In this document: one piece after another, positions 13,355 through 23,415 of the stretch | Layout of the letters: each line of letters begins with the position of its first letter | Numbering within the stretch: the stretch's first letter is position 1 | Source of the DNA: a virus | Taxonomy: Duplodnaviria > Heunggongvirae > Uroviricota > Caudoviricetes | IMG/VR virus record: IMGVR_UViG_2802429223_000002 | Strand: one strand, 5' to 3' | DNA length: 43,156 nt | Position numbers and translations under genes: made by a program | Notes under the pieces: model-generated | What the model was told of the DNA's origin: nothing | Seen by the model: the letters and a program-made list of their open reading frames with translations, nothing else | Database searches by the model: none

Positions 13355-13684
13355 CTATGCCACGACCTGTTCAAAATCTGCCGTTATGGTTACCCACAGC
13401 GCCCCCACGCTTGCCGACCATTTACGACAAACCACCCTGATCGGCTTCCAGTCATAAGGTGGCGTCCACTGAAATGCGCGGACGCCACCGTGCCGTTCCA
13501 GAAAGGCTTTCAAAGATGGGTGTTCACATTTACGAACACGTATCGTCACGCTGTAAGTCGACAACTGGTTATTCAGTCCCGCCGCACGACGCTGTTCATA
13601 ACCATCGCCCAGCTTCACTGTCACCACTTTCGGCTCTGATACCACATTCATATCCGGGCGCACTTTCCAGTGAAACGTCTCCAT
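13355..13684 (-). CDS. M: minor tail protein M
   Basis: 109 aa, lambda M-like (METFHWKVRPDMNVVSEPKVVTVKLGDGYEQRRAAGLN...). Confidence 0.95.
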   Translation of the reverse strand: METFHWKVRPDMNVVSEPKVVTVKLGDGYEQRRAAGLNNQLSTYSVTIRVRKCEHPSLKAFLERHGGVRAFQWTPPYDWKPIRVVCRKWSASVGALWVTITADFEQVVA

Positions 13685-16600
13685 TACCGATATGCTCCAC
13701 TTAACCGACCACCATCACGGGCCTGCTGTTGCATAAAGTCCGCTGCCGCTTTTTTCCCGAGGTCATAAACCACCTTCAGGGCAGCCGGACCTATCTGCCC
13801 GTTCGTGCCATCGTTATTGATCTCGATGTTGTACTGCGGGGCAAACATCGCCATACCTGAACCACCAATATCCGCCACAACCCCCAGCTTACCGTCAGCA
13901 CCACGACGCAGAGGCAGAATGGCTTCAGGCCCAGCTTCCCCCATCACACCTGCACCTTTTGCAAAAGCAAAAAACGTCGGACGGTTAACCACCGTGCCAC
14001 TGTAGCGACTCAAATCAGCAGACTGATAAACACCACCATCAGCATTGGGCGTCACACTGGCAGTTGCTGCACTCCCCCAGCCAAACGCCGAACCAATCCC
14101 CTTAACTGCCTGCATCATGGACATCTGAGCCATGATTTTTGCCAGATCAGAAAGGAGCGAGGCGGTAAAAGATTTGAAGTTCAGTTTTCCGGTGGTACAG
14201 AATGTTGCCAGTGCATTACCTGCACTATTAAATGCCGCTGTAAGCATCTGCTCCGCAGTGCCTGCCGCATTATCCGCATCTGCCGTGAAATTCTGAAACG
14301 CCCGCATGGCACCGTTTTTCCAGTTACCCTGAGCAATTTCAAGCTGTTGCCAGTAACGGCGATTCTCATTCAGTTGCCTGTTCAGGCTCTCCGTCAGCGC
14401 CTGCTCGGCCTTTCTGTAGTCATCCGTGTTATATGTCCCTTTCTGCTCACTATCCCGCCTCAACTGCTCCAGCTGTTGCTGGTATTTCTGGCGAAGGCTC
14501 AGTTGTACCTGATATCGCTGCCGCTGCTGATCACCCATACCCACCGTGGCGATATCCAGGTCATGTTGCTGACGCTGAGCGCGCTCTTCTTCAGCCAGTT
14601 GACTGGTCAGCTGAATTGTTTTTTTCTTCAGATCGTTGAGTGCCGTCTGTTTCTGAAGCTCCTGCTGTTTTACATCCAGCAGCGTCAGTGCCTGAATCAG
14701 TTCATCTTTACGGGCCAGCACACTCTTTTCATCTGCCGTCAGTTTTTTCCCGTCCAGGTCGCTGATGCGCTGCTGCAGAGCCAGAAGCTGTTTATGCGCT
14801 TCTGTCATCCTGTCAGTGGCAATGCCTGCTGACTGTCTGGCAGCAGCAATCTGCCCTTCCACCTGTGCCTGTTGCTGGCTGTACTGCAGCAATAACCGGG
14901 TGGCCTCATCATTACGGGTTTCGCGTGTTTTTTTCTTACCGGATGCCAGGGCTTTCTCGTAACGTTCATTTTCACGTTGTATCGCCGCATCCCTGACAGC
15001 CTGATCGGCGTACTGCATGGCATTAATACGCGCAATTTCACGCTGATGTCGTGCTGCTTCCGTTTCATTCATCCGGTTCAGTGCAGCATTTTCAGCATTA
15101 CGGCGTTTCTGTTGCTCCTGATAATTCCGCTCTGCCTGCTCTTTTGCATCCTGCAAATCCTTCTGGCGTTTTTTCTCCTGAAGCTCGTTAAGACGCTGCT
15201 GATCGTACTCAACCTGAGAAGATGATGCCGTCCAGGGGAGTCTTTTCGCCCGCGACACTTTCTCCTGTAAAGCGGAAATCTGTTCATCCAGCGAGTCTTC
15301 ACGACCAATATTCATGGCCGCATCCCAGAAACGACTCCATAAATCAGACAGATACTTCAGCGTACTGCCCAGCGCATTGAGGTTATTATCAATATCCGCA
15401 GTACGCCGACCGGTTTCCTCTGCCAGTGCAGACATGGCTATCCGTGCCGCATCACTGGACCGCCCCTGTTCCCCAAGGACGCGTATCTGTTCAAGCTGAG
15501 TGGCAGTAAGAAAATGCAGCTCATTGTCCAGAGCCTTCGCGGCATTTACAGGATCATCCTTCAGCCGCTTAAACTGATTTATGGTATCGCTGACCGACTG
15601 GCCAACCGATCGCTCCATCTGTGCGGCAGCTCTCGCCACCATACCGATATCGTTTCCACGAAATGCACCACTCCCCACCACCTGAGCCAGCGCACCGGCT
15701 GCAGCATGTTGCGTAATACCATTCCCGGAAATAGCACGACTGAGCGTCCACAGCTGCCCGGCAGTGACTCCGGCATAATGCCCCGTCAGCGACAACTGGC
15801 GGTTAAATTCTTCCCCCTCCTTCTGACCATCATACCAGGCTTTACCCAGACCATAGACGGCCGCGGCAATACCGCCAATAACCCCGCCCAGCATCATGCC
15901 TTTCGGTGACATCAGTGTGTCTATCCATCCGGCACGGTTAGCCAGCGTTATCCCGGATCCCCTCAGCGCACCTAAATTGCCGCGAGCCAGTTCACCTATC
16001 AGAACGCCTATCTCCTGGCGGGCCGCTGCACTTTTCAGACCCAGCGAATGCGTGGCTTTTCCTGCCTGCTCCATTTTGCGGATATACACTTCTGCAGCAC
16101 TGCTTACCCCCAGCTGGGTAGCCTTAGCACGAAGCAACTCAGAAGAAGAAAGATTCTGGCGGGTTGCCTGCTCTTTAAGCTGACGGATAAACGCCACTTT
16201 CTGTCGGGTAGCCTCTGCCTCAGCCTGCGTAAGAACACGGGTTTTCGCCGTAACCTCAGAAATCAGCGCCAGATAATCCTGCTGACCAATCCCGCCACTG
16301 TTTCTGGCCTGTCGGATCTGCTGCTGAATACGCTGTAATTCCTGCAGCCCCGCACTGGCCTGTTTCACACTGTCAATCTGACGATAAAACGCAGCAGCCG
16401 CTTTATCCTGAGCCTCCGCCAGAGCCATGGCCTGCGCCTGTTCCTCGCGCATTTTCTGGCTCAGTGCCTCCATACGCTGGCGGGTTTGCTCCACCTCGCG
16501 GGCCATGCGTTCATGAGCCTGTGCGCTCTTCTCCACCGTCTGCGCATGGACGGATGCGGCTGTTGCAGCCGAAGAAGCCGCCTGCATTGTCTGCCGGGCG

Positions 16601-16758
16601 GCCTGAGTCTGACGCTCCATAAAACGCTGCATACGGGCAGAAGACCGTTCTGCATCGCTGGCTGCACCATTCAGAAGGTTTTTGATACGGGGAATTTCAT
16701 TTTTAAACTCTGCCGCATCAATCCCCAAATCAATGACCAGGTTGGCTATCTGGTCCAT
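13684..16758 (-). CDS. H: tail tape measure protein
   Basis: About 1024 aa, coiled-coil rich; C-terminal NNDGTNGQIGPAALKVVYD...DGGRLSGAYR resembles lambda H C-terminus; ATG 16758 with GGAGG SD preferred over TTG 16788. Confidence 0.9.
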   Translation of the reverse strand: MDQIANLVIDLGIDAAEFKNEIPRIKNLLNGAASDAERSSARMQRFMERQTQAARQTMQAASSAATAASVHAQTVEKSAQAHERMAREVEQTRQRMEALSQKMREEQAQAMALAEAQDKAAAAFYRQIDSVKQASAGLQELQRIQQQIRQARNSGGIGQQDYLALISEVTAKTRVLTQAEAEATRQKVAFIRQLKEQATRQNLSSSELLRAKATQLGVSSAAEVYIRKMEQAGKATHSLGLKSAAARQEIGVLIGELARGNLGALRGSGITLANRAGWIDTLMSPKGMMLGGVIGGIAAAVYGLGKAWYDGQKEGEEFNRQLSLTGHYAGVTAGQLWTLSRAISGNGITQHAAAGALAQVVGSGAFRGNDIGMVARAAAQMERSVGQSVSDTINQFKRLKDDPVNAAKALDNELHFLTATQLEQIRVLGEQGRSSDAARIAMSALAEETGRRTADIDNNLNALGSTLKYLSDLWSRFWDAAMNIGREDSLDEQISALQEKVSRAKRLPWTASSSQVEYDQQRLNELQEKKRQKDLQDAKEQAERNYQEQQKRRNAENAALNRMNETEAARHQREIARINAMQYADQAVRDAAIQRENERYEKALASGKKKTRETRNDEATRLLLQYSQQQAQVEGQIAAARQSAGIATDRMTEAHKQLLALQQRISDLDGKKLTADEKSVLARKDELIQALTLLDVKQQELQKQTALNDLKKKTIQLTSQLAEEERAQRQQHDLDIATVGMGDQQRQRYQVQLSLRQKYQQQLEQLRRDSEQKGTYNTDDYRKAEQALTESLNRQLNENRRYWQQLEIAQGNWKNGAMRAFQNFTADADNAAGTAEQMLTAAFNSAGNALATFCTTGKLNFKSFTASLLSDLAKIMAQMSMMQAVKGIGSAFGWGSAATASVTPNADGGVYQSADLSRYSGTVVNRPTFFAFAKGAGVMGEAGPEAILPLRRGADGKLGVVADIGGSGMAMFAPQYNIEINNDGTNGQIGPAALKVVYDLGKKAAADFMQQQARDGGRLSGAYR

Positions 16759-17090
16759 AACGCACACCTCCGGAAATACCTTCCCCAAGATGCATCAGTT
16801 CTTCGTCCGTTCGCTCCGGTATCCCGTTCTCTTCCGGTAAAAGGCTGAAATCAGCCACCTCAGCATCACTGCTACCGGACACCATTCTCACGATCAATGC
16901 CTTCAGCGAGGCAAACTGCGCATCCATCCACACATCACTGAAGCTCTGCATCCGGAAATAATCGCCCCACTCACCAAGCTCAGTGGCCGACATTTCCGAC
17001 AGCATCCGCCGCCAGTCTGCCCGCCGGAACTCCCGGGCAAGCCGCATGACAAACTGCATTTCCCGCGTCAGGACTTTTCCGGCGTCAGCA
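16730..17090 (-). CDS. T: T segment of the G-T tail assembly chaperone, reached by programmed -1 frameshift from G
   Basis: ORF in the -1 frame relative to G, open only from about 17090 and overlapping the G 3' end; arrangement equals lambda G/G-T; frameshift site not canonical (CCGGAAAAG near 17072-17080). Confidence 0.6.
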
Positions 17091-17457
17091 CCTCATGCTC
17101 CAAATCCCCGGCATTCTCAATGGCTCCCATACCGCTCAGCGACAGAACCATCTCCGCCCCCGCTCCCAGGGCATCATACGACCATGTTGTAATAACGGAT
17201 GCGCAAAGCGTCTCAACATCCTGAGACTGTTCCGCATTCCACAGTGAGCGGGAAACCAGCCAGGCATTGATATCCATCCCCATCCGCAGAAAAGCAATCT
17301 GTCGTTCAGCCTCCGGCAGTTCTCCCTCTTCGGCATCAAACTTTGCCGTTCGCTGCTGAACAAACGCCAGATATTCAATTCTCTGCAGCCCGGACAGCTC
17401 ACTGAGCACCACGGACTGCTTTTCATAATTAAACGTGCCCTGTTTCAGAAACATCAT
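17068..17457 (-). CDS. G: tail assembly chaperone G
   Basis: MMFLKQGTFNYEKQSVVLSELSGLQRIEYLAF resembles lambda G (MFLKTESFEHNGVTVTLSELSALQRIEHLA); start moved to internal ATG with GGTGGAG SD. Confidence 0.8.
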   Translation of the reverse strand: MMFLKQGTFNYEKQSVVLSELSGLQRIEYLAFVQQRTAKFDAEEGELPEAERQIAFLRMGMDINAWLVSRSLWNAEQSQDVETLCASVITTWSYDALGAGAEMVLSLSGMGAIENAGDLEHEVLTPEKS

Positions 17458-17470
17458 GTTCTCCACCTGC

Positions 17471-17494
17471 AAAAAAGCCCCGGATAACCGGGGC
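17471..17494 (-). terminator. rho-independent terminator between V and G
   Basis: GCCCCGG / CCGGGGC 7-bp stem with ATAA loop, followed on minus strand by TTTTTT (plus-strand A-run 17471-17476). Confidence 0.55.
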
Positions 17495-17514
17495 AAATGA
17501 TGAGTATCGTCCTG

Positions 17515-18258
17515 TTAACCTGCGGCGCTGACAGCCACCGCAGCCACTGCCACAAAATCGCCGTCAGAAGTCATGCCCACAATGCTGACACTGCCCTGCT
17601 TCACGCCTTTCACCGTGGCCACAAGCCCGTTCAGGGTCACCGTGGCAGTCTGTGGATCTGTCGAATGCACACTGATCGCTTTGTCACTGGCTCCGTCAGG
17701 TTTTACTGTAAAGGTCAGCGTGGTGGTTGCTCCCACTTTTATACTGGCAGATGCCGGTGATACTGTCAGCCCGGTAACGCTCACGGTTTCAGTGCCTTCC
17801 TCTGCCAGATACGGACGCCCCACACCGCTGATTTTCACTGTGCGGGTCATCACGTCTTTTGAGGCAATGGTTTTACCCAGTGAGCTCAGCCAGCCACGGA
17901 AAACATCAACAGTGCCGTTGGGATATTTGATACGAAACGCGCAGACTTCACCGGAGTCGAACAACTGAACCAGTTTTTTCTGCCCGCTGTCACCCGGACG
18001 CCAGGCCAGCGTCGCCGAAGTATCACCGACGGATTTCTGCCCCTGGGTTGTCGTTTTCCAGTCTGCATCTTCATCATCGAGATAAGTGTCATCTTCTGCA
18101 TCAGCGGTCATTTCGCCAGGCTGCAGATCCTTCACCATCGCAAGACGCAGCCAGTCAGTGTCCGATAAAGGGTTCGCAAACGCATCGCCCTTGCCGGTGT
18201 ACATCCAGAACGTCGTTCCCGCACCTTTCGTTTTTGCCAGTGGATTTGGTGTGGTCAT
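17515..18258 (-). CDS. V: major tail protein V
   Basis: From MTTPNPLAKTKGAGTTFWMYTGKGDAFANPLSD the protein parallels lambda V including YLDDEDADW and the C-terminal Ig-like region; strong SD AAGGAGGTGG before ATG 18258. Confidence 0.9.
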   Translation of the reverse strand: MTTPNPLAKTKGAGTTFWMYTGKGDAFANPLSDTDWLRLAMVKDLQPGEMTADAEDDTYLDDEDADWKTTTQGQKSVGDTSATLAWRPGDSGQKKLVQLFDSGEVCAFRIKYPNGTVDVFRGWLSSLGKTIASKDVMTRTVKISGVGRPYLAEEGTETVSVTGLTVSPASASIKVGATTTLTFTVKPDGASDKAISVHSTDPQTATVTLNGLVATVKGVKQGSVSIVGMTSDGDFVAVAAVAVSAAG

Positions 18259-19934: not shown

Positions 19935-21893
19935 TTACGCCGTACATTTCACCAGACCGCGGTGATCAACTGGCGCGACACCAGCGTCAATACGCACTTT
20001 CGTTGTCACGCCATCCACACTGAAGCCCTCCATCTGATCAATATATGGCGTATCCACACCGTTGAGATAAGCCACTTCAATCGTATCGGAGCCTTTTGAC
20101 GCAGCCAGGTAGAAGGTGGTCTGGCTGTTATCATCAAGACGAGGCTCTGCAATAACGGTCGCAAAATCTTTCACCGGGTTAATAATACCGGCGTTAATGT
20201 CAGCCCCCTTGACACTTGAGGAGCGAATGACCTGGTTAGCAACAGACTCCATCGCCGTCGGTACCAGTACGAACGCAGGACGAATATTCAGATGACGCTC
20301 CCCCTCTTTCTGAACACGCATCAACTGGCGGGCTTTATCCAGCGATGCCACGTCCATTGCAGCGTCCTCCAGTACGTTTGCATGTTTCGCTTTATCGAAC
20401 AGACTTACATTATCTGTGGAGATTTTCGGGTTAGACGTCAGAATGGCATAAACCAGATCGGCAATAGTGGATTTCGCCGCACGGCCCAGCTTCATCGGGA
20501 CATCGGTCAGCATATTCAGATCATCATTGATAATGGCCTGACGGGTGATACTGAACAGCTCGCCATAGGTCGCCAGTGCAATAGTGGCCTGTTTATCTCC
20601 GGTGGTGACGTATTTATATTCCGCCCCTTCACGCACCTGACGCAGAGCACTGAAGCCCCCCATACCCACGCGATGGGCAATTTTAAAATCAGACAACTGA
20701 CCTTTCCGCGTCCACTGTTCATAGGTTTCAGGGGCATCCTCCCAGCCCTGCAGAATGGCTTTGTTCGCAACATCCAGCAGAATATTACCGAAGTCAGACG
20801 TACTGTGTGTGAACGCCGCACCGACCATCTGCATCGGGTTATAACCGGAAACCCCAATACCCCGTTCAGTCAGTGACATACGGGCATATTCACGCAGGGT
20901 CATCCCGTTGTAGACATTATCACGTTCGGTTTTTTCAAATCCGGCACGCGCCATCAGCGCCTGGCGGATCCCGTCCCCCACAAAATTACCGTTACCGGCA
21001 TAAATATGAGCCGGGGTATTTTTATTGGATGGCGTGGACTCGCGCCCCATCTCGTTCAACAGCTTTTCGCGGGCCTGCTCCAGCGAACATTCAGGATCGG
21101 CAAGACACTGAGCCTGCAGCATCTGATAACGCCCGCCAAACATGGCAAACAGATCATTAATACCGTTTACACGCGCTTTTTGCTCTGCCAGTACCTGCGC
21201 ACGGATACTGTTTTCATCCACCACGGGTGCTGCTGCCTGCACTGGCGTCCGGGAGGCTGCAGGTTCATTATCCTGTACGCGTGGAGCACTGTTGCGTGGC
21301 GGAGTAATCATGTTTCGAATGGATTCCGGCATCTTTTTAAATTCCTCTGTACGTTTTGACTGAATACATGCCATTGCCTTAACGGCTGGCGTCACCTGAT
21401 CAGCAAATCCATGTGCCAGACATTCGGCACCGGACATCCAGGTCTCATCCGCCAGCATGGCAGCAATTTCATCGGTGGTTTTCCCGGTTTTCTGTGCATA
21501 AGCGGGTAACAGAACCGCCTCAACCTTATCGAGCAGGTCGGCATAGGTGCGCATGTCCTCCGCATCACCGCCCGTAAAGCCAAATGGTTTATGAATCATC
21601 ATGAAGGTGTTTTCCGGCATAATGACCGGTTTTCCCACCATCGCAATGACCGACGCCATTGACGCCGCCACACCGTCGACATAAACGGTAATGGACGCAC
21701 CATGTGTTTTCAGCGCATTAAAAATGGCGATGCCTTCAAAGACATCGCCACCCGGTGAATTGATATGGAGATTAATGTGGGTGATATCGCCCAGTGCATT
21801 CAGATCACTGATAAACTGCTTCGCTGTAACACCCCAGAAACCAATCTCGTCATAAATATAAATATCCGCGTCACTCTGGTGACCAGCCTGCAT
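19935..21893 (-). CDS. fused prohead protease (ClpP-like) - scaffold - HK97-fold major capsid protein
   Basis: Single ORF; N-terminal ClpP/S14-like block (IYIYDEIGFWG...INSPGGDVFEG...ASMASVIAMVG) and C-terminal capsid-like region; start set at ATG 21893 just after portal stop (ORF track extends to 22154). Confidence 0.8.
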   Translation of the reverse strand: MQAGHQSDADIYIYDEIGFWGVTAKQFISDLNALGDITHINLHINSPGGDVFEGIAIFNALKTHGASITVYVDGVAASMASVIAMVGKPVIMPENTFMMIHKPFGFTGGDAEDMRTYADLLDKVEAVLLPAYAQKTGKTTDEIAAMLADETWMSGAECLAHGFADQVTPAVKAMACIQSKRTEEFKKMPESIRNMITPPRNSAPRVQDNEPAASRTPVQAAAPVVDENSIRAQVLAEQKARVNGINDLFAMFGGRYQMLQAQCLADPECSLEQAREKLLNEMGRESTPSNKNTPAHIYAGNGNFVGDGIRQALMARAGFEKTERDNVYNGMTLREYARMSLTERGIGVSGYNPMQMVGAAFTHSTSDFGNILLDVANKAILQGWEDAPETYEQWTRKGQLSDFKIAHRVGMGGFSALRQVREGAEYKYVTTGDKQATIALATYGELFSITRQAIINDDLNMLTDVPMKLGRAAKSTIADLVYAILTSNPKISTDNVSLFDKAKHANVLEDAAMDVASLDKARQLMRVQKEGERHLNIRPAFVLVPTAMESVANQVIRSSSVKGADINAGIINPVKDFATVIAEPRLDDNSQTTFYLAASKGSDTIEVAYLNGVDTPYIDQMEGFSVDGVTTKVRIDAGVAPVDHRGLVKCTA

Positions 21894-21906
21894 CCTGAAC
21901 CAGGAA

Positions 21907-23415
21907 TTATTCTTCGGACTGGTCGTCGGTGTGCTGCGGCTCCTGTCGTTTCGTTGCGGCACTGCTGCCTCCTTTATCACTGGCCGGATCGGTATCAAAT
22001 ACCAGATCCAGCTTGCGGTTTTCATCAATTTCGGCCTTGCGCCGACGTTTGACATCATCCGGATTACGACCACCTGCACGTACCCAGTCTGATTCTGTCG
22101 CCGCTCCACCACGAATCTGGATTTTCCAGGCCTCAGCCTCCTTAACAGGGTCAATCCACGGCATCACCGGTCCGGAATACACCGCGGTATACAGTGAAGA
22201 ACGGTCAAGATCGCGGGGTAGCCTGATAACACCGGATGCCACAGCCTGTTTCAGCCAGGCACGGTACATCGGGCGGGTGACGGCACCAATAAACCAGTCC
22301 TGCAGGATCAGGTAGCCATCAGTGGATTCAACCAGCTCCTGACGCTGGGCGCTGTAAGTGCCGTTATAGTTGCGCGCTGTACTGGAAAAACTCAGACGAC
22401 TGCCAGCCGCCACTGCACGCAACTGACCATTACGAAAAGTTTCAAGATTAGGATTGGGGCGATCCGACTTCACCATTCCGATTTCTTCGCCGGGTTTCAG
22501 ATCGTCGTAAATAATGCCTGGCTGAATGGTAAGCTCGCGTTCCTTATCCTTGCTGCCATTACCATCCGGTTCATAGCTCTGCCCGTCGCCTTTGCGGATG
22601 TACATCCCCAGAGCAGCGGCGATCCTTGCTGCAGTCAGCTCATAATCTTCATAATCTTTCAGGGCACTGAGGCGGATCAGCACACCGGACAACAAAGACG
22701 TCCCGCGCATCTGGTGCAGACGGCGAACAAATTTAAGATGCAGCATTCGCTCTGCATCCACTTCTTTGGTTTCCATCTGCCGTCCGGATACGGGACGGCT
22801 TTTATACACCAGATATTTTTCGGGACGCCCCCAGTCATCAACAAACACGCCCTGATTCAGCCTGTTGGTCTCATCACTGGTCATGGGAATAAAGTCTGGC
22901 TCGAGCGCCTCCAGCCAGAAATGAACACCGGCAGAAGGCGTCAGGCTGTTTATGCGCCCGGAAACCATCTGGGCAAACACCTCACCATCGCGCAGCCAGG
23001 TACGCAGCATCAGACGTTCCAGCATCGGACGGGTAAACTGCCCGGTGACTTCCGGGCTGACAGACCATTCACTCCATCGGGTGCGAATCTCCGCTGCCAG
23101 ATCACGGGCAATGGCCCCATTGCGTAATACCGGATGTGGCTCGACAATAATCCCGTTTTTCCCCACCACCCGTTCTTCCAGCTTGTCAAATACACCAATA
23201 ACCAGATCGTGGTTGTTATCAAGGTAACGGGCCTGCTCACGTAACGACACGGCCCCGTACTGGCTTAGCTGGTCGGCAGTTCGGTTCTCCCGTCGGGCTT
23301 TGTGTGTCCGCGTCGTTTTTACGGCTTCATAAGCCTGGATCACCGCACGGGAACGCAGCCTTGCCGCTTTCCATCCAGGTGAAAAAACGCCAATCACATC
23401 ATCAAGAATTGCCAT
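21907..23415 (-). CDS. portal protein
   Basis: About 502 aa from MAILDDVIGVFSPGW; position between W and protease as in lambda; start ATG overlaps W stop (ATGA). Confidence 0.85.
   Translation of the reverse strand: MAILDDVIGVFSPGWKAARLRSRAVIQAYEAVKTTRTHKARRENRTADQLSQYGAVSLREQARYLDNNHDLVIGVFDKLEERVVGKNGIIVEPHPVLRNGAIARDLAAEIRTRWSEWSVSPEVTGQFTRPMLERLMLRTWLRDGEVFAQMVSGRINSLTPSAGVHFWLEALEPDFIPMTSDETNRLNQGVFVDDWGRPEKYLVYKSRPVSGRQMETKEVDAERMLHLKFVRRLHQMRGTSLLSGVLIRLSALKDYEDYELTAARIAAALGMYIRKGDGQSYEPDGNGSKDKERELTIQPGIIYDDLKPGEEIGMVKSDRPNPNLETFRNGQLRAVAAGSRLSFSSTARNYNGTYSAQRQELVESTDGYLILQDWFIGAVTRPMYRAWLKQAVASGVIRLPRDLDRSSLYTAVYSGPVMPWIDPVKEAEAWKIQIRGGAATESDWVRAGGRNPDDVKRRRKAEIDENRKLDLVFDTDPASDKGGSSAATKRQEPQHTDDQSEE

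Follow-up and report, generated by a model that had tools for sequence, protein, structure and literature searches.

How gene G and the T reading frame behind it could give a joined product is the question raised by this locus, since the stretch in which the two frames overlap carries a heptamer other than the slip site of phage lambda. In the window, meaning the whole 43,156-nucleotide stretch of viral DNA that was analysed, a lambda-type G/G-T programmed -1 ribosomal frameshift at the heptamer G GAA AAG very probably joins G and T, as judged from sequence comparison. We infer that the shift happens, how often it would do so, and what share of it would fall to re-pairing in the P site as opposed to a pure slip of the lysine tRNA.

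Genomic context of the G and T genes

The window belongs to the mEp460/cdtI/Ayreon group of lambdoid phages (97.5-99.8% identity). Of 5426 complete E. coli genomes searched, 1848 (about a third) carry its G/T region, mostly within a prophage in the chromosome, and the host is E. coli. The G/T tail assembly genes lie on the minus strand, and all three frames were translated. Gene order is V-G-T-H, of the lambda type, with G and the T frame located between the genes for the major tail protein and the tape measure protein (Table 1). Homologues of gene G begin MFLK, and the gene starts at ATG 17454; an alternative in-frame ATG at 17457 would give a protein of 129 aa. The T frame spans 16730..17092, and the segment predicted to be read after the shift begins at codon GTC (17074-17072) and stops at TGA 16732-16730.

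Gene H begins at ATG 16758 and shares its first 29 nt with the end of T; an SD sequence, GGAGGTGT, lies 5 nt upstream of this ATG (-13.1 kcal/mol). At this T/H junction GGA GGT GTG CGT TAT GGA specifies G-G-V-R-Y-G, a conserved motif at the C terminus of T, and the same stretch doubles as the SD sequence of gene H and its ATG, the latter lying within TAT GGA. A strong intrinsic terminator was found between V and G; the Ayreon record marks this feature as a terminator and the N15 record as a putative one, and it presumably keeps the expression of G, T and H below that of V. Elsewhere in the window, a single long ORF combines a ClpP-type prohead protease domain (PF00574, residues 94-254, 3e-36) with a domain of the major capsid protein (PF25209, residues 440-735, 1.1e-54) in one fused product; translation probably begins downstream of the TTG given as its start.

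Table 1. Features of the G/T region and its surroundings in the window
Feature	Coordinates	Strand	Remarks
Gene V, upstream neighbour, encoding the major tail tube protein (Big_2 domain at its C terminus)	17515..18258	-	PF16461 (1.5e-66), PF02368
Intrinsic terminator between V and G	17477..17494	-	GCCCCGG-TTAT-CCGGGGC then TTTTTT; 7 G-C pairs
Gene G, tail assembly chaperone, 128 aa	17068..17454	-	PF06894 Phage_TAC_2 (E=1.8e-39); RefSeq name 'phage tail assembly chaperone G'
G/T overlap window, inside which the shift must fall	17068..17095	-	Bounded by TGA 17095-17093 of the -1 frame and TGA 17070-17068 of G
SD-like GAGGTG, candidate upstream stimulator	17089..17094	-	Ends 8 nt upstream of the heptamer
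Putative shift heptamer G GAA AAG	17074..17080	-	0 frame ccG GAA AAG; -1 frame GGA AAA G
T segment as read after the predicted shift, 114 codons	16730..17074	-	PF06223 Phage_tail_T (E=3.8e-15)
In-frame ATG, stand-alone T start in RefSeq	17057..17059	-	
T/H junction	16750..16775	-	
Gene H, tape measure protein, downstream neighbour	13684..16758	-	PF06791, PF09718, PF24622
Protease-capsid ORF	19935..22154	-	

A single candidate slip site in the G/T overlap

The tail of G reads GAG GTG CTG ACG CCG GAA AAG TCC TGA in its own frame (17094..17068). The -1 frame is shut by the first TGA of the overlap and is open thereafter until the T stop. The overlap thus measures 28 nt including both stops, of which about 25 nt are open in the T frame. 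This agrees with the preliminary description, in which T was said to be open, in the -1 frame, only over the last ~30 nt of G, and a G-T fusion to need a -1 shift within a string of ~27 nt.

Each codon of the overlap was checked against its -1 partner. The sole perfect re-pairing was AAG to AAA, and GAA to GGA re-pairs at positions 1 and 3 with a central G.U (G opposite U35). Since the remaining codons fail to re-pair (GTG to GGT, CTG to GCT, ACG to GAC, CCG to GCC and TCC to GTC), G GAA AAG (17080..17074) is the sole candidate site in the overlap, and the earlier view of it as the only slippery-like sequence there holds under a codon-by-codon check. Direct reading of the lambda junction also confirmed that the site is not G GGA AAG, from which it is one base apart and whose alignment column it occupies. 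The heptamer departs from the X_XXY_YYZ pattern at bases 1-3, which are G-G-A and not identical, and agrees with it at bases 4-6 (A_AAG, AAG to AAA); A_AAG stands in the 0-frame register, as in IS1222-type sites.

A shift at this site would give a G-T fusion of 127 + 114 = 241 aa with the junction ...VLTPEK|VLTREMQF.... This predicted product aligns column for column with the curated G-T products of phi80 and LLS and with lambda G-T.

Evidence on an independent start for T

The T frame contains an ATG at 17059, from which T could be made as a separate 109-aa protein, for example by termination and reinitiation after the G stop, and no frameshift would be needed. This ATG lies 8 nt past the G stop, and short gaps between a stop and a start can support coupled reinitiation; RefSeq and several GenBank records give T as a stand-alone CDS. 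However, the anti-SD match at ATG 17059 is -3.4 kcal/mol, compared with -7.0 for G, -13.1 for H and -13.8 for V at the true starts nearby, and its position is occupied by CTG or CTT in Gifsy-1, Gifsy-2, Fels-1, N15, phi80 and lambda, where it corresponds to the Leu of a conserved E-L-x-F motif. The separate-protein reading is also at odds with the sequence upstream of the ATG, where the T frame is open and the heptamer is conserved in every lineage listed, and with the behaviour of lambda T, which acts only as part of G-T (PMC5009743). With its near-absent SD and its replacement by CTG/CTT in relatives, ATG 17059 is not a credible start and is probably just an internal Met codon; synthesis of T as a protein of its own is considered very unlikely.

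Conservation of the heptamer in relatives

The heptamer was invariant in 90 of 90 close relatives compared, and changes elsewhere in their overlaps were limited to GTG to GCG upstream and TCC to TCA downstream. In an alignment-based scan of viral contigs the best 80 loci were all 95-100% identical, so that it is informative for invariance only; a scan of genome contigs with a single protein returned only 7 near-identical loci. Two G-T loci from genome contigs (L007 and L012), 94-99% identical to the E. coli prophage studied here, belong to metagenome-assembled genomes that bear the names 'Bacillota bacterium' and 'Proteobacteria bacterium', which suggests binning contamination or mislabelled bins.

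In the more distant Gifsy-1, Gifsy-2 and Fels-1 (68-70% DNA identity) the amino acids of the G tail differ, yet CCG GAA AAG (T/C)CC TGA is kept. The retention of G GAA AAG both in the 90 close relatives and in these phages with differing neighbouring codons indicates that it is not there by chance. GGAAAAG was also found at the homologous position in N15, phi80, LLS, HK225 and mEp213, which a tblastn search against annotated phages showed to carry GCG or GTG GAA AAG in the homologous column. The 100% conservation of the heptamer among lineages chosen by the heptamer is circular and was not counted as evidence.

Slip sites across the G/T family

A survey whose choice of loci was independent of the slip site was made by scanning viral contigs with a DNA motif of the T domain located ~60 nt downstream. 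A clean junction was present in 115 of the 120 matches listed, which are mostly enterobacterial prophages, so that the proportions given here are indicative only. Clustered by G identity, the 115 junctions fall into 25 lineages at 80% and 13 at 60%. Every one of the 115 requires a -1 shift and carries NNNAAAG in register, at 6 or 18 nt ahead of the last base of the G stop.

Among the matches listed, GGAAAAG was present in 57 of 115 contigs (18/25 lineages at 80%, 10/13 at 60%), the lambda heptamer GGGAAAG in 47 (3/25 and 1/13) and AAAAAAG in 8 (2/25 and 2/13), while CGCAAAG, AGAAAAG and AGGAAAG were found in one contig each, each forming one lineage at either threshold. These figures point to GGAAAAG as the commonest slip site of the G/T family and to the lambda heptamer as a minority form, at least among the matches listed. 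Other variants occur in related phages: Vibrio phages carry C CCA AAA, and CP-1639 and Stx1 phages A AAA AAG. In three viral contigs (L180, L214 and L181) the junction reads A GAA AAG, C GCA AAG and A GGA AAG, respectively; A_AAG is kept and P-site re-pairing is lost, and these could be either working lysine-only slip sites or decaying prophages.

The sole element invariant over all 115 junctions listed is A_AAG. Of the Lys codons elsewhere in the surveyed genes only 36% are AAG, so its presence at the slip site of all 25 lineages listed is far beyond the expectation from codon usage (chance roughly 6e-12, ignoring phylogeny). A second regularity concerns heptamer position 1. Among the matches listed, 19 lineage entries have GAA as the P codon, and 18 of them carry G at this position, although it is the third base of a CCG or GCG codon and fourfold degenerate.

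The runs known to support productive transcriptional slippage are far longer than the four A at this junction, which is a poor candidate for that process. A second way of doing without ribosomal frameshifting would be a junction that has decayed and lost its function in a defective prophage, as might be supposed from the mostly prophage occurrence of the G/T region in E. coli chromosomes. But the heptamer is conserved over 18 lineages among the matches listed, and an identical junction is present in the isolated plaque-forming phages mEp460, Ayreon, phi458 and cdtI. Decay and transcriptional slippage are together regarded as extremely improbable.

Proposed slippage mechanism

In the proposed frameshift, most ribosomes on G would read ...CCG GAA AAG TCC and stop at TGA, giving the 128-aa chaperone gpG, and a small fraction would slip back one base with GAA in the P site and AAG in the A site. 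The single tRNA-Lys of E. coli (anticodon mnm5s2UUU) would re-pair perfectly from AAG to AAA, and tRNA-Glu (mnm5s2UUC) would exchange GAA for GGA, keeping Watson-Crick pairs at positions 1 and 3 and forming a G.U in the middle. Translation would then resume at GTC CTG ACG... and yield the 241-aa fusion, whose G part, by analogy with lambda, may bind the tape measure protein and whose T part may recruit the tail tube protein.

In E. coli one tRNA-Lys reads both AAA and AAG (PMC5009743), and A_AAG is the most shift-prone tetramer (PMC4066793). Re-pairing of tRNA-Glu from GAA to GGA through G.U has been discussed for phage chaperone frameshifts, and the 'twofour' motif class of PRFect fits GGAAAA (PMC10885494). 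Near-cognate tandem slippage of the Glu and Lys tRNAs is the mechanism that we favour, with modest confidence.

The shift could instead be a slip of the single tRNA-Lys on A_AAG, with GAA and the preceding G playing no role in re-pairing, as in an NNA_AAG site of the IS1222 kind. The invariance of A_AAG alone over the 115 junctions listed would be expected in that case, as would the three lineages with P codons that do not re-pair (C_GCA_AAG, A_GGA_AAG and A_GAA_AAG). Non-canonical P codons before A_AAG are used naturally, as in the G_CGA_AAG of IS1222 (PMC5009743), and Peng et al. (2019) count GAA to GGA as a second-position mismatch (PMC6924986). However, a lysine-only slip does not account for the preference for G at position 1 in GAA-P-codon lineages, a degenerate third base, nor for the fact that the common family variants G_GGA, A_AAA, C_CCA and G_GAA all permit P-site re-pairing at least at positions 1 and 3. 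The tetramer on its own is, moreover, close to background unless a strong stimulator is present: Sharma et al. (2014) obtained about 0.15% for A_AAG without a stimulator, against a background of 0.11%, and 5.6% with a strong pseudoknot (PMC4066793), and no strong stimulator was found here. We consider the lysine-only slip rather unlikely. The G at position 1 in 18 of the 19 entries, kept despite degeneracy, argues that re-pairing to GGA in the P site matters, and P-site re-pairing in the tandem mechanism probably contributes to the shift.

Candidate stimulators

Downstream structure was no better than in shuffled sequence (z = -0.22 for an 87-nt fold and z = -1.40 for a 161-nt fold), and RNAalifold on nine divergent GGAAAAG phages gave a covariation term of +0.41, with no support for structure. 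Neither folding nor RNAalifold revealed a stable stem-loop of the dnaX or IS911 type 5-9 nt downstream of the heptamer. A scan of 16600-17600 against Rfam (E<=1) gave no credible match, the one spurious hit scoring 14.6 bits against a gathering score of 80. The longer fold included a pairing between CGCCGGAA and UUCCGGCG, which was rejected as a stimulator; because the slip site would itself be sequestered in this pairing and Fels-1 and N15 disrupt it, it was attributed to the protein motifs P-E and E-F-R-R.

Upstream of the heptamer, the SD-like GAGGTG is a candidate lead and possibly stimulates the shift. Its anti-SD duplex is -9.2 kcal/mol, a strength that is reached at 2-5% of late-operon positions. 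SD-like elements were enriched near GGAAAAG across lineages that are not independent of one another (Mann-Whitney p=0.0026), and this enrichment was position-dependent and confined to a short-tail subgroup, in which the G stop is one codon past the heptamer. One relative (L218) has AGGAGGTG at the position of the element. Besides the dependence among lineages, three observations weaken the lead: the tail of G is rich in purines, the element is reduced to GAGGCG in 23 of 90 close relatives, and the N15 group lacks it.

Tentatively, and as a conjecture that we think will more probably fail than hold, the SD-like element of the short-tail subgroup (GAGGTG here, AGGAGGTG in L218) might lift G GAA AAG to a few percent, as in dnaX and IS911, and the G:G-T ratio of this very common prophage family might depend on host tRNA 2-thiolation even more strongly than that of lambda. 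Such stronger dependence is possible because the slipping tRNAs, Glu and Lys, both carry mnm5s2U34. For lambda, a host tRNA 2-thiolation axis has reportedly been described by Maynard et al. in 2012.

Slippage efficiency

The G-T system requires a shift of just a few percent. Working with reconstituted E. coli translation, Peng et al. (2019) set AUG GAA AAG, on which 'only one tRNA can slip', as a control against G GGA AAG; unlike the latter, it gave mainly the 0-frame product (PMC6924986). Together with the near-background values of Sharma et al. (2014) for A_AAG, this lends indirect support to the lower efficiency suggested in the preliminary description, and a lower intrinsic efficiency of G GAA AAG than of the lambda site is plausible. 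A literature search for a published frameshift efficiency of GGAAAAG in a phage context found none, the only full-text match being Peng et al. (2019), and a search for a published G-T fusion measurement in the mEp460/cdtI/Ayreon phage group likewise found none.

Annotation of T in phage and prophage records

T is called as an independent ORF in the RefSeq E. coli locus examined (start ATG 17059) and in the Ayreon and HK225 records, with an even shorter ORF in Ayreon than in RefSeq; the ribosomal-slippage join used for phi80 and LLS is absent from these three. Given the presence of the G/T region in 1848 of the 5426 complete genomes, the stand-alone T is probably a widespread annotation error in E. 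coli prophage records.

The main practical value of the site lies in annotation, where T would be better given as the C-terminal portion of a G-T product made by frameshifting; tools restricted to X_XXY_YYZ would miss G GAA AAG. The finding leaves the understanding of tail assembly unchanged. The slip site that nature uses most often in the G/T family, among the matches listed, is the heptamer that biochemists have used as a poorly slippery control, and the family is therefore a good natural system for studying the contributions of near-cognate P-site pairing (central G.U) and of context.

Comparison with known frameshift systems

Several phage records already annotate counterparts of this site. 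In N15 the heptamer is marked as a 'slippery sequence for -1 translational frameshift', the phi80 record gives GGAAAAG as a -1 slippery sequence together with a joined gpG-T CDS, the LLS record has a 'minus-one programmed translational frameshift site GGAAAAG' and a joined CDS, and the Gifsy records mention production 'by translational frameshifting'. The preliminary description had presented the site as non-canonical. This is correct in so far as the heptamer lies off the X_XXY_YYZ pattern, but the site is not unusual, since it is annotated in N15, phi80 and LLS and is the commonest heptamer in the family sample (among the matches listed). The G GAA AAG shift site in the window is a real but ordinary feature of an already known type.

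The closest annotated systems are N15 genes 14/15, phi80 gpG/gpG-T and LLS genes 11/12, which share with this phage the G (PF06894) and T (PF06223) domains, the V-G-T-H order, the -1 direction and GGAAAAG in the same column. Their T domains are ~41-43% identical to T here. They differ in the G stop, which is five codons past the heptamer in them and one codon past it here, in the codon before the heptamer (GCG or GTG, in contrast to CCG here) and in lacking the nearby upstream SD-like element that this phage has. Gifsy-1, Gifsy-2 and Fels-1 are the closest diverged relatives and have the same short tail with the CCG GAA AAG (T/C)CC TGA ending, but no ATG at the RefSeq T-start position of this phage, and their upstream SD-like elements are weaker or differently placed.

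The G/G-T frameshift of phage lambda at G GGA AAG was reportedly described by Levin, Hendrix and Casjens in 1993. It has homologous proteins, position and shift direction, the same Lys-tRNA slip from AAG to AAA and, as here, Gly-Lys in the -1 frame. The two differ in the P site, where tRNA-Gly (GGA) re-pairs cognately in lambda, whereas tRNA-Glu (GAA) here needs the central G.U. The lambda shift takes place at about 4% (PMC3296357), with a gpG:gpGT ratio of about 30:1 (PMC5009743).

The slip sites of IS1222 (G_CGA_AAG) and B. subtilis cdd (A_CGA_AAG) belong to unrelated genes but are, like the site here, outside X_XXY_YYZ, with perfect re-pairing only of the A-site Lys codon and reliance on the shift-prone single tRNA-Lys (PMC5009743, PMC4066793). 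In IS1222 the P site holds an inosine-wobble tRNA-Arg (PMC5009743), whereas tRNA-Glu at the present site would retain two Watson-Crick pairs and a G.U, so that G GAA AAG is closer to a true tandem site than are the sites of the IS1222 type.
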